A stretch of DNA of 64,000 nt from a phage. Where the stretch lies: NCBI GenBank assembly GCA_014740375.1, contig GCA_014740375.1_3041.1; one strand, given 5' to 3'. Both the position numbers and the translations under genes were made by a program. The notes under the pieces are model-generated. The model was not told the origin of the DNA and searched no databases. It saw only the letters and a program-made list of their open reading frames with translations. Positions 2,329 to 6,694 of the stretch are shown piece by piece (positions within the stretch are counted from its first letter, which is position 1; every line of letters begins with the position of its first letter).

Positions 2329-3333
2329 TTAGCTCACCAACTCAATCCAAGCTGGACGAAGTACATCTTGCACCATTTTAACTAATTCCTTTTTAATCAA
2401 AGAAGGATTATCTGCTTGAGTTAAAGTAATACCTTCACGAGAAGTTTCTTCCAAAATATCTTGAACAGTTAGCCCCATCACCTTTCCAAAATCCTTTGGA
2501 CCAATTTCACCAATTTTAGAAATAACGTTATTTACTCGGTTTAGTGTAACGTAACAAGCTAAAATCCCCACCAATTTGTTATCAGCTTCTGACAGTTCAA
2601 CTTTAGCTTTAATAGGCTTATCAGACTTTTTCTTTTCACTAAATTTAGAATTCTTACATTTGATGGCTACACGATTGCGATTAGGCAGCCAAGAAGGATA
2701 ACAAGGTTTCAATACATATCCTTCAGCGGTAAATACTTCGCCTTTGGCTTCAGCTTTCCAAACACATTTGTTAGCGTCAATTAAACCTGCATTATCTACG
2801 GTAAAATTATAAGACGGAACAACAGAATCCAAATCATTTGGAAGTTTAATAAGATCTTCAAATTTACCACGACCCAAAAGTGGAGCGATTTTAAACCCAA
2901 ATGAATTACAAAACGATTCCATCATGTAATCATCAACATAAGTTACATCACCACTTTCGGTAGTGACAATAATGTCAAATACATAAAAATCTTTATCGCC
3001 ATAATCAACATTCTTCTGAATGCCAGGTCCAGCGAATTCGCCAAAAACTTGATAAGTCACAACAGCTGAAGTTTCCATAATTTCTTGGACAGCTTTAATA
3101 GAATCTTCGTAATTCTTTAAAATAATTTCATAACCGAAGAAATCTTCAGCAGGAAGAATCGGTCCAGTACGTTTAGCGCAAGTTACTTTATCACGCTCAA
3201 TAATCAATGAGAAATTTGTGCCGTGAATCTTTTCACGAGCTACCCATTCGCCGCCAGTCAATCCCAAGCTATAAAGTTTTTCAATAAATTTAGAGTTGTA
3301 ATGATTTTCAAGACTGCTATACTTTTTAAACAT
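2329..3333 (-). CDS. rnlB: RNA ligase 2 (Rnl2)
   Basis: 334 aa; nucleotidyltransferase motif I KIHGTN near N-terminus; T4 position downstream of gene 24. Confidence 0.92.
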
Positions 3334-3342
3334 AATTAATCC

Positions 3343-3621
3343 TCAAAATGTAATTTCTAACCAATCACCATCACGCTGATCACTATTGACTTTAAAGCTG
3401 AATCCCTCTTTTCTCAGCCAATCACCAATTTCTTCAGTAATCAATTTATCGCGAGCAGTACAATAATAACTAAAATATGTTTTACCTTGTTCAGCTGCTT
3501 TATTAGCAAGTTCTGAAAAATCTTTAATAAAACACTCTAGCTTAAACTGTTTATTTTTTAATGCTTTTTCACGTAATTGATTAGCAAAAGATTCATTTTC
3601 ATAAAGATCATACTGTTCCAT
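3343..3621 (-). CDS. Hypothetical protein (T4 24.2 position)
   Basis: 92-aa ORF in operon with rnlB. Confidence 0.55.
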   Translation of the reverse strand: MEQYDLYENESFANQLREKALKNKQFKLECFIKDFSELANKAAEQGKTYFSYYCTARDKLITEEIGDWLRKEGFSFKVNSDQRDGDWLEITF

Positions 3622-3823
3622 TTTTCACCTTTTTATTGATATGTCTTTTTCTATAGACAACTTTTTCTCGAGTTTCAAATTTATTCTTAGCAGTCATAGC
3701 TCGAGCCCATAATACAGCCACTTCTTTTGCCTGTAAGTTCAATTCACGAGCAATTTCAATGAATGACTTTCCAGACTCATGAAGAGTAAACACCACAACC
3801 TCAGTTCTCATAATCAATCTCAT
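3608..3823 (-). CDS. Hypothetical small protein (T4 24.3 position)
   Basis: 71-aa ORF overlapping start of downstream ORF. Confidence 0.5.
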   Translation of the reverse strand: MRLIMRTEVVVFTLHESGKSFIEIARELNLQAKEVAVLWARAMTAKNKFETREKVVYRKRHINKKVKNGTV

Positions 3824-3912: not shown

Positions 3913-5337
3913 TTATGGATAGGTATAGATGATACCAGTTTCTAAAGCAGTTTTATGAATGATGTATCCATTACGTGATTCTTGAACATCAACTTCTGGA
4001 TAGTCTTTCATCATCTTCTGAAGAGTGTAACGATGCAGGTAGTATTTACTATCTGGATCTTCAGTTTTCCAATCTTTACCTTCTTCGGTCATTTTTTGGA
4101 TTTCATCCATAACCCACCAACCGCACCAGATATAAGCCGAAGTACGATGTGGAAGAGGATGAACATAAGGCAATTCACCTTCTGGTTCTGGAGCAACTTT
4201 ATCAGTTACCTGAACTTGACCTTCTGCTGTGATAGTTTTGCTATCATAATCAGTAGCAGTAACAGTTGCAGTAACTTCAATAGTTTGACTTCCAATAGAT
4301 GATGTATCAACGGTGTATACATTAGTTGACCCTTCTACTGGAGAAGAATCTTTCTTCCATGAATATTCAATTTGAGCTTCTTCTGGAGCATCAGTAACAT
4401 TAGCAGTAAATGTAGCCGAAGCATCTTGCTGAACGTTAATAGAAGGAGGAGTCAATGTAACCTGTGGATTCATTGTCTTCTTATTAACTGTTAATGATAC
4501 TTCATTAGAAGTAACTTCCTTTTCATTGTAATTTTCTGCAGTTACTTGCGCTACACACTTAACTGTTTTAGCTCCAACTGTGGTAGGAGTATAGTTAAAT
4601 GTAGAGTTAGTTTCTTCACCAATTTGAGAATCATCTACATACCATTGATATGTAGCAGACGCTCCATCGGGTTGAGAAACTAAGGCAGCAGTAAATTGAA
4701 CTGGGGTTCCAATAACTCCTGCTGGAGGACTATCAGGAGTTACTGTCAAGGTAGTTGTCTGCGTCTTTTTATTAACAGTCAGTGACACTTCATTAGAAGT
4801 AACTTCCTTTGCATCATAATCTGTCGCGGTTACTTGAGCTACACACTTAATTGTTTTAACTCCGCTTGCGTCAGGAGTGTAATTGAATGTAGTGCCAGTT
4901 GCTTCGCCCACAGGAGAACCGTCAACGTACCATTGATATGTAGCGTTTGCACCTGATGGCTGTGAAGCTAAGGCAGCAGTAAATTCAATTGGAGCTCCAA
5001 TCACTCCAGCATCAGGGCTACCAGGAGTTACAGCTAAGGTAGTTGTCTGTGTCTTATTTTGAACTGTGATAGTTGTCGTAGCTTCTGCTGTTTCAGGTTC
5101 AGATTCAGATTCTGGAACTGTATTTGTTGCAACGACTTTAATAGTCTTTTGACCGGCAGGTCCTTTTAATACATAATCAAAAGTTGCCGCCGATCCTTCT
5201 TGCGGAGCATTATCTACACTCCAAGCATAGGTAATAGTTCCACCTTCAGTTTGACCACTGGGTGCAGCAGTAAACTGCTTAGTTTCATCAATAACTCCAG
5301 TAGGTGTTTTAGGAGTTATATCAACTGTAAAAGTCAT
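3913..5337 (-). CDS. hoc: Hoc (highly immunogenic outer capsid protein) with four Ig-like domains
   Basis: 474 aa; Ig-like repeats plus C-terminal capsid-binding region; two adjacent domains are near-identical; T4 Hoc is 376 aa. Confidence 0.85.
   Translation of the reverse strand: MTFTVDITPKTPTGVIDETKQFTAAPSGQTEGGTITYAWSVDNAPQEGSAATFDYVLKGPAGQKTIKVVATNTVPESESEPETAEATTTITVQNKTQTTTLAVTPGSPDAGVIGAPIEFTAALASQPSGANATYQWYVDGSPVGEATGTTFNYTPDASGVKTIKCVAQVTATDYDAKEVTSNEVSLTVNKKTQTTTLTVTPDSPPAGVIGTPVQFTAALVSQPDGASATYQWYVDDSQIGEETNSTFNYTPTTVGAKTVKCVAQVTAENYNEKEVTSNEVSLTVNKKTMNPQVTLTPPSINVQQDASATFTANVTDAPEEAQIEYSWKKDSSPVEGSTNVYTVDTSSIGSQTIEVTATVTATDYDSKTITAEGQVQVTDKVAPEPEGELPYVHPLPHRTSAYIWCGWWVMDEIQKMTEEGKDWKTEDPDSKYYLHRYTLQKMMKDYPEVDVQESRNGYIIHKTALETGIIYTYP
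4477..5058 (-). repeat. Tandem direct repeat (2 x 291 bp) encoding duplicated Ig-like domain of Hoc
   Basis: Hoc residues ~94-190 and ~191-287 both run TQTTTL(A/T)VTP ... EVTSNEVSLTVNKK with ~75-80 percent identity. Confidence 0.8.
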
Positions 5338-5346
5338 AAGTTATCC

Positions 5347-6027
5347 TTATTTTAATGTTACGAAAGAAGAATTGCGTGTTTCACGAATTAGAACTGATCC
5401 GTCACGATTAATGTAGTAAATTAAGCTAAATAAAGTTTGGTGTGCCGACGCATGTTCAAAACTAGTTGGGTGAGATTTCCAATCCGGAGTTTCAGCAATC
5501 CACTGGTAAATCCACCAAGGAACAGTGCAGAATCCTGGATTTTTTCCAATCAGCTGAAGATTCGGACTAAAGTTTTCCGGAAGAGTAAATACAGACGGCT
5601 TTTCAGATTCAATAATCTCAGCTACAGCCTGCTCGAATTTTTCTTCAACAAAAGGAGTATCTTCAATCAAAACATCGGTATTTTCAGTAATTTTATCCGT
5701 TTCTACTACTTCAATTTTAATGTCAGATTTAACCGGAGAATCAATCAGAAGTGCTGCTTCTGGATTGACTTCTTCATCGTCATATTTTAATCCGTCTGCA
5801 GCATCAGCAGCATCAATTAAGTCTTTAATAGATAACCCATCAGTCTCTGGCATAGGTTCACTAGCGAGCTTCTGGAGGGCTTCTTCAATATCATTAACGA
5901 TATTATCAAAAGATTTATTCTTTTTGACTTTTATACCAAACTGTTCAGCATATTCAGCTAATTTAGCTTTAGCTTCTTTATTATCATCAAGAGCCTTCAG
6001 CTCTGCAATATAATCTTTATCTATCAT
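5347..6027 (-). CDS. inh: Inhibitor of prohead protease (Inh)
   Basis: 226 aa, same length and position as T4 inh (downstream of hoc). Confidence 0.7.
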   Translation of the reverse strand: MIDKDYIAELKALDDNKEAKAKLAEYAEQFGIKVKKNKSFDNIVNDIEEALQKLASEPMPETDGLSIKDLIDAADAADGLKYDDEEVNPEAALLIDSPVKSDIKIEVVETDKITENTDVLIEDTPFVEEKFEQAVAEIIESEKPSVFTLPENFSPNLQLIGKNPGFCTVPWWIYQWIAETPDWKSHPTSFEHASAHQTLFSLIYYINRDGSVLIRETRNSSFVTLK

Positions 6028-6076: not shown

Positions 6077-6694
6077 ATGTACCACTTTGTATATGAAACA
6101 ACAAATCTAATAAATGGTAAAAAGTATATAGGAAAACACTCTACTGATGACTTGAATGACGGTTACCTTGGTTCCGGTAAGGCAATTCAGCAGGCTATAA
6201 AGAAATATGGTGAAAACAATTTCTCTAGAACAATACTAAAAGAGTTTAAAACTTCCGAAGAAGCGTACATGTATGAAGAAGAAATTATAACTCCTGAACT
6301 AATAAAAAGCAAAAATTATTATAATATGAAACCTGGTGGAATTGGTGGAATTGTTATGACTACAGAGGTTATAGCAAAGATGAAAGAATCTTCCGCTAAA
6401 AGATTTGAAAACTCACCAGGCACGGTATTAGGTAAAACTTGTTACACTAATGGAACTAAAAATATTTTTATTAAACCTGGAGAACTTGTTCCAGAAGGAT
6501 TTGTAAAAGGGATGGTTCATCCTAATAGAAAGTCCAGAAAAGGATGTAAAGTCAAACCGACTACCACAGGAACTTTTTGGGTCAATAATGGCGCAATAAA
6601 TAAATTAATACAACCAGACGGTATTATTCCCGACGGATTTATTAAAGGTCGTCTCATGAAAAGAGATTCTAAAGGCAAATTTAGTAAGGCATAA
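6077..6694 (+). CDS. segE: GIY-YIG family Seg homing endonuclease (205 aa)
   Basis: N-terminal GIY-YIG module (HFVYETTNLINGKKYIGKH ... YNMKPGG); located between inh and uvsW where T4 segE lies; symbol by position. Confidence 0.65.
   Translation: MYHFVYETTNLINGKKYIGKHSTDDLNDGYLGSGKAIQQAIKKYGENNFSRTILKEFKTSEEAYMYEEEIITPELIKSKNYYNMKPGGIGGIVMTTEVIAKMKESSAKRFENSPGTVLGKTCYTNGTKNIFIKPGELVPEGFVKGMVHPNRKSRKGCKVKPTTTGTFWVNNGAINKLIQPDGIIPDGFIKGRLMKRDSKGKFSKA

Follow-up and report, generated by a model that had tools for sequence, protein, structure and literature searches.

The hoc locus and the domains of its protein

The stretch of phage DNA analysed here, referred to as the window, comprises 64,000 nucleotides and represents a Tequatrovirus genome segment that shares 97.8% identity across 20 kb with the genome of Hafnia phage IsaacDaniel (species Tequatrovirus ime09). 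At positions 3913-5337 on the minus strand lies hoc, the gene for Hoc (highly immunogenic outer capsid protein), which is present here in a form carrying four immunoglobulin (Ig)-like domains (4-Ig). The open reading frame list gives 474 amino acids plus a stop codon, and the assignment to hoc made in the original prediction is corroborated by a phmmer match between the window protein and T4 Hoc (5vf3_Z, 376 aa) with E = 4e-211. Hundreds of matching records annotate the gene as Hoc-like head decoration, and Pfam reports a PKD domain (E = 1.1e-11) together with Ig_3 and Ig_2 matches. The exact protein sequence is already deposited at NCBI as EGI3119496.1, where it is named ‘PKD domain-containing protein [Escherichia coli]’. 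Its record is a 166,739-bp contig, a phage genome within a bacterial isolate assembly that has been filed under Escherichia coli. A Tequatrovirus hoc is also found in MG010123.1, a record that is flagged UNVERIFIED_ORG and named Staphylococcus phage SAJK-IND, in all probability by mistake.

The genes surrounding hoc are arranged in the order rnlB, 24.2, 24.3 (DUF2774), hoc and inh, followed by a SegE-type GIY-YIG endonuclease gene on the opposite strand. The order from rnlB to inh is the same in IsaacDaniel, RB3, teqdroes, KFS-EC3 and others, and this supports the identification of the site as the Hoc locus. Downstream of hoc, gene 24.3 (3608-3823, minus strand) carries a DUF2774 domain (Pfam, E = 4e-31) and is syntenic with 24.3 of RB3. 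Directly upstream lies inh (5347-6027, minus strand), the gene for the inhibitor of prohead protease, which was recognized from its open reading frame and from the inh annotation in syntenic loci. No exact site for the T4 late promoter TATAAATA was found upstream of inh and hoc on the minus strand. The SegE-type homing endonuclease gene (6077-6694, plus strand; Pfam PF19835) is located between inh and uvsW. IsaacDaniel, T6 and KFS-EC3 also carry this gene, and it is missing from UGKSEcP1, ESh33 and SHBML-50-1, in which the helicase gene abuts inh. A mobile endonuclease adjoining hoc could favour co-conversion of nearby markers in mixed infections.

Window Hoc can be divided into five segments, all encoded on the minus strand. 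The D1 Ig-like domain (residues 1-95; 5053-5337) aligns with residues 1-93 of T4 Hoc, is modelled as a beta-sandwich with pLDDT values of about 85-93 and would form the distal tip of the fibre. It is followed by two D2 units of 96 residues each that are supported by repeat detection, orthologue identity and clustering, namely D2a (residues 96-191; 4765-5052) and D2b (residues 192-287; 4477-4764). Next comes the conserved, capsid-proximal Ig-like domain D3 (residues 288-383; 4189-4476), which aligns with D3 of T4 Hoc and shares 97% amino acid identity with that of RB3. The capsid-binding domain at the C-terminal end (residues 384-474; 3916-4188) is nearly identical to the C-terminus of T4 Hoc.

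The tandem repeat formed by the two D2 units is readily detected at the DNA level. A repeat search returned two adjacent 288-nt copies (4475-4762 and 4763-5050) with 77% identity, and Tandem Repeats Finder reported a period of 288 with 2.0 copies and 78% matches at 4475-5055 (score 715). When placed in codon register, D2a and D2b agree at 223 of 288 nucleotides (77.4%) and 72 of 96 amino acids (75%) without gaps, far above the identity of about 25-30% that would be expected by chance. The original prediction of two adjacent, in-frame Ig-like domains with roughly 75-80% identity was thus accurate, except that its unit of 291 bp or about 97 residues should be 288 nt and 96 residues, and that its end coordinate of 5058 overshoots the repeat by 6 nt. 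The longest exact in-register run shared by the two copies is 24 nt and lies near the 3′ end, and conservation of the DNA is highest at the ends of the units. Because the unit boundaries fall within inter-domain linkers (between NKK and TQTTT), exactly one structural domain is repeated.

An AlphaFold2 model built with 47 homologues predicts a string of four beta-sandwich domains with pLDDT values of about 88-96, in which the strand patterns of residues 96-191 and 192-287 are identical. The C-terminal domain, modelled off the capsid, has low pLDDT and is mostly invariant across the 47-homologue alignment. A Foldseek search of the PDB gave four-Ig ectodomains as the best matches (E ~1e-13); these matches are generic, do not include Hoc itself and serve only as confirmation of the fold.

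T4 Hoc derives from the same gene at the same locus and has one D2 unit where window Hoc has two. Its length of 376 aa, as given in the original prediction, agrees with the PDB entry, and its sequence aligns with window residues 1-114 and 199-474 such that one unit is left over. The alignment of window residues 199-474 with T4 residues 101-376 scores 538 bits, which supports the assignment of the capsid-binding domain at the C-terminal end. Of the 98 residues that window Hoc has beyond T4 Hoc, 96 constitute the extra D2 unit and the remaining two form a Ser-Glu insertion, which is located in a loop of D1 and is lacking in T4 Hoc. This insertion arises from a (GAATCT)n hexanucleotide repeat (5092-5112, minus strand; Tandem Repeats Finder period 6, 3.5 copies), in which hoc codons 76-80 read GAA TCT GAA TCT GAA (ESESE), and it explains the length of 474 rather than 472 aa. 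A variant longer by two residues is also present in the other length classes (378 and 570 aa), and the exact loop motif TVPESESEPET was found only in three 378-aa proteins. This distribution is suggestive of slippage or of a spread of the variant by recombination.

Length polymorphism and age of the D2 copies

Related hoc genes occur in 659 phage records, among which the best match reaches only 94.8% DNA identity (megablast), and the best full-length protein matches are about 92% identical. When the best 120 protein clusters are arranged by length, 80 measure 376-379 aa, 30 measure 468-472 aa, nine measure 567-570 aa and one measures 439 aa. The size classes of approximately 376, 472 and 568 aa correspond to one, two and three D2 units, and thus to 3-Ig, 4-Ig and 5-Ig proteins. 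This survey of the polymorphism encompasses 120 cluster representatives and about 12 loci, out of approximately 600 genomes.

To judge from evenly spaced samples of the match lists, a junction between two D2 units is present in roughly 30-40% of approximately 600 Tequatrovirus-level records. Specifically, a 100-nt probe spanning the D2a/D2b junction gave a single-piece match in 12 of 40 evenly spaced rows. The count of records covered by this probe to at least 80% is inflated by half-matches in 3-Ig genomes that were merged, such that the frequency is only approximate. Even genomes that are about 97% identical over the flanking 20 kb can differ by one unit, as is true for CrRp10, Shfl2 and Kha5h, whose corresponding spans are shorter by about 294 nt. 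In phage T6 (NC_054907.1), the 3-Ig hoc is annotated as two overlapping coding sequences (983-1468 and 1449-2114 of its locus), and this split annotation implies a frameshift or a sequencing error.

The 4-Ig alleles of other Tequatrovirus members (such as ime09, IsaacDaniel, KFS-EC3, pSs-1 and ESh33) have the same architecture as the window allele and are composed of orthologous units. The 5-Ig alleles of UGKSEcP1 and UGKSEcP2 add a third unit. At the nucleotide level, D2a shares 89-92% identity with the first units of IsaacDaniel, KFS-EC3 and UGKSEcP1 and 90% with the single D2 of teqdroes, and D2b shares 89-92% identity with the second units of the same 4-Ig and 5-Ig phages and 91% with the single D2 of RB3. 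The 77% identity between D2a and D2b within the window is lower than the identity of either copy to units that occupy the same position elsewhere, and the protein class means agree with this pattern. D2 of T4 Hoc is identical to the window copies at 77 and 79 of 96 residues (80-82%) and itself looks mosaic; its near-equal likeness to both copies blurs any simple tree that might be drawn from these sequences.

Estimates of synonymous divergence point in the same direction. By the Nei-Gojobori method, D2a and D2b differ with dS = 0.69, dN = 0.17 and omega = 0.24, whereas orthologous units compared across phages have dS values of 0.17-0.31. The two units of IsaacDaniel are separated by a dS of 1.07, and a comparison between two single-copy alleles of different type (teqdroes and RB3, alpha and beta, respectively, as defined below) yields 1.08. 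Both D2 copies are under purifying selection, and therefore both are functional domains. The original prediction of a recent in-frame duplication consequently stands only in part. A tandem copy of domain 2 is indeed present, but the synonymous divergence, the orthologues with 89-92% nucleotide identity and the common junction are incompatible with a recent origin, and the two copies are not each other’s closest relatives. Judged by these divergences, the repeat is real but old, and it is not peculiar to the window phage.

Unit types, mosaicism and contraction

Clustering of 148 in-register D2 units revealed three types, designated alpha, beta and gamma. Alpha units always come first in arrays (34 of 34 first units) and are never found in a later place, where most units are beta and then gamma. 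The second place is taken by beta in 24 4-Ig proteins and in all eight 5-Ig proteins and by gamma in four 4-Ig proteins, and the third place by gamma in six and by beta in two of the eight 5-Ig proteins. Thus, alpha-gamma and alpha-beta-beta arrays also exist. Among the 68 single units from 3-Ig proteins that were clustered, about 6-20 are alpha, 41 are beta and seven are gamma.

Alleles are heavily mosaic, with six variable segments giving rise to 108 haplotypes among the 148 units. The window allele has its own combination of segments, in which the first unit is of the alpha type, the second resembles the beta type over most of its length and contains the segment PTTVGAKTV as a short patch of the gamma type, and D1 carries the Ser-Glu insertion. 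In DNA sequence, the 3′ third of D2b is closer to the last of the three units of UGKSEcP1, a 5-Ig phage, although the evidence for a gamma-type patch is suggestive only, given that it comes from a short stretch of about 70 nt. Divergence is also distributed unevenly along the gene. Relative to IsaacDaniel, the closest genome, nucleotide divergence amounts to 10.9% in D1, 11.5% in D2a, 8.0% in D2b, 2.1% in D3 and 0.4% in the C-terminal domain, with 0.7% in inh and about 1-2% in most of the flanking sequence. The high divergence of the distal domains is consistent with recombination having replaced the exposed portion of the fibre. Elsewhere in the same region, rnlB, the gene for RNA ligase 2 (2329-3333, minus strand), is 8.7% diverged from its counterpart in IsaacDaniel while its neighbours differ by about 1-2%, and this patch suggests another recombinational replacement.

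To examine the relationships between longer and shorter alleles, all in-register collapses of neighbouring units were simulated and the products were compared with the shorter alleles, which yielded several near-exact pairs. The most informative pair comprises the 4-Ig hoc of ESh33 (1501-2919 of its locus) and the 3-Ig hoc of the Shigella phage SHBML-50-1 (1783-2913 of its locus). The single D2 of SHBML-50-1 is identical to unit 1 of ESh33 up to a point between nucleotides 42 and 59 and to unit 2 thereafter, with no mismatch in 288 positions. Of the 68 informative sites that distinguish the two ESh33 units, the first 11 derive from unit 1 in SHBML-50-1 and the following 57 from unit 2. The crossover is located within the 17-nt identical run GCTGGAGTGATTGGAAC. 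The surroundings of the two alleles differ by 1 nt in the 279-nt head of hoc and by 1 nt in 690 nt of inh.

A simple duplication of the hybrid could not have recreated two units with 68 differences between them, and the SHBML-50-1 allele is therefore most simply explained by an unequal crossover that contracted a 4-Ig allele to the 3-Ig form. In another 3-Ig allele (P0076), the crossover lies at a different point in the same 4-Ig background, and one pair of 5-Ig and 4-Ig proteins differs by loss of the third unit, both as observed at the protein level. With one-, two- and three-unit classes present in close relatives and a clean single-crossover hybrid at hand, the D2 region behaves as a copy-number-variable array, and the suggestion made at the outset that the repeat is a substrate for changes in copy number is supported. 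Given that the longest exact run shared by D2a and D2b is only 24 nt, such events should be infrequent in the window phage.

Origin of the array and its significance for Hoc fibres

We believe that the window carries a representative of an old D2 array of one to three units, with an alpha unit in first place, that is polymorphic in the genus, is reshuffled by recombination and is contracted by unequal crossover. We assign this interpretation a probability of about 0.7. According to this model, the D2 position would hold such an array across the genus, where it would persist as a polymorphism of both length and sequence. Segments would be shuffled among alleles by homologous recombination between co-infecting phages, and in-register unequal crossover between neighbouring units would contract the array and presumably sometimes expand it.

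The alternative that most deserves consideration is that alpha, beta and gamma units diverged as single-copy alleles in separate phage lineages and were later joined into arrays of two or three by out-of-register recombination at the unit ends in mixed infections, such that the 3-Ig form would be ancestral and the 4-Ig form derived. T4-type phages recombine heavily in mixed infection, all three types do occur as single units, and the conserved unit ends with their 24-nt exact run near the 3′ end offer sites at which such crossovers might take place. Some pairs of 4-Ig and 3-Ig alleles (P0022/P0120 and P0036/P0082) differ by a whole unit, as would be anticipated under this scheme, with no direction indicated. 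However, random joining should also have produced beta-alpha and alpha-alpha arrays, and the invariable placement of alpha units in first position argues against it. Furthermore, the only event that is resolved at the DNA level is a contraction, and 4-Ig Hocs are also found in sister genera, which makes strings of several units an old feature of the subfamily. We consider assembly from single-copy alleles rather unlikely for these reasons. At the same time, the direction of the original event is ambiguous, because each type also exists as a single-copy allele and the array could have come from diverged alleles instead of from a duplication in situ in the distant past.

The remaining explanations are far less probable. 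A recent tandem duplication in situ, in the lineage of the window phage, would account for two units that are adjacent, in frame, equal in length and clearly homologous, but it is very difficult to reconcile with the synonymous divergence of the copies, with the closer orthologues in other phages, with the short longest exact run and with a junction that is present in roughly 30% of related records. Repeats are prone to mis-assembly, and the sequence apparently originates from a phage contig in an E. coli isolate assembly, which raises the concern that a collapsed or expanded repeat, a mis-join or an annotation error has created the structure. This can hardly be the case, as no assembler could confuse copies with differences at 65 of their 288 sites, the reading frame shows no interruption and the same architecture is found in hundreds of independently sequenced phages. 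Equally implausible is hypermutation by a diversity-generating retroelement (DGR), with one unit serving as the template and the other as the variable repeat. DGRs are known to target surface-located Ig-like domains in other phages, and variation in the D2 units is concentrated in loops. Nevertheless, the mismatches involve all four bases (G20/A16/C16/T13 in the first unit and A27/T18/G10/C10 in the second) and comprise 38 transitions and 27 transversions, a spectrum without the adenine specificity that marks a DGR target, and the variation is shared among phages as haplotype blocks.

Hoc proteins with additional Ig-like domains have been reported previously. Hoc is described as a 180 Angstrom fibre that binds the capsid through its C-terminus and that has variable Ig strings, with 650 homologues carrying from one to ten Ig domains and the maximum of ten present in Serratia phage Muldoon (Fokine et al. 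2023, PMC10385173). An extra Ig-like domain relative to T4 has been noted in Klebsiella phage PMBT63, together with variation of this number among T4-like phages (2026, PMC13435897). Variable Ig number in Hoc is therefore already published, and window Hoc belongs to a common, deposited allele class. An explicit description of the Tequatrovirus D2 tandem array was not found in the literature searched, the coverage of which was incomplete and makes this only weak evidence of novelty. We view the alpha-first order of the array, its mosaicism and the documented contraction as a modest addition to this literature. No concept is changed by these findings, because the variable number of Ig domains in Hoc has already been recognized.

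Comparisons with other genera indicate that domain number has changed in more than one way. In the hoc of Klebsiella phage Marfa (Marfavirus; 301-1716 of its locus), the capsid-proximal D3-type domains d3 and d4 are 77% identical in amino acid sequence, and those of Gaprivervirus TH44 (301-1713 of its locus) are 55% identical. The duplication in these phages affects another domain, of the D3 type, and is evidently an event independent of that in the D2 region of Tequatrovirus. Mosigvirus phiC120 has four Ig domains of which the middle two are only about 39% identical, and Hoc of Dhakavirus WG01 is composed of D1 and D3 without any D2.

Published work on T4 allows some expectations for the window protein. 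Its C-terminal domain should dock at the centre of the gp23 hexamer, presumably with one Hoc per hexamer centre given the near-identity of this domain to that of T4, and the Ig string should project as a fibre. Like T4 Hoc, the protein would presumably be dispensable for growth. This fibre would be longer than the T4 fibre of about 180 Angstrom by approximately one Ig domain (roughly 40-45 Angstrom), and two D2 surfaces would be presented. In the 2-Ig Hoc of phage PhiPNJ-9, binding to MUC2 and fucose has been mapped to residues S183, L184 and T185 of D2 (Fu et al., PMC11853027). These residues correspond to the NEVSLT strand, which appears twice in window Hoc (S185-L186-T187 and S281-L282-T283), and both strands would be expected on the fibre surface. 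The doubled D2 surface could confer higher avidity for mucin glycans or changed antigenicity. A more far-reaching proposal, which we regard as possible but doubtful, is that D2 serves as a recombination-driven variation cassette, its copy number and segment make-up changing continually in mixed infections, under selection for fibre length, glycan binding or antigenic properties, and that the 3-Ig Hoc of T4 represents a longer array that has collapsed.

Hoc underlies the ‘bacteriophage adherence to mucus’ model, is the main display platform for T4 nanoparticle vaccines and acts as a dominant antigen when phages are used therapeutically. A longer fibre of four or five Ig domains, in which the D2 surface is duplicated, is encoded by about a third of the T4-like coliphages sequenced. 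This architecture has practical relevance when therapeutic Tequatrovirus isolates are compared for their adhesion to mucus, their immunogenicity and their clearance. Since unequal crossover contracts the array, it also bears on how stable engineered fusions to hoc are.
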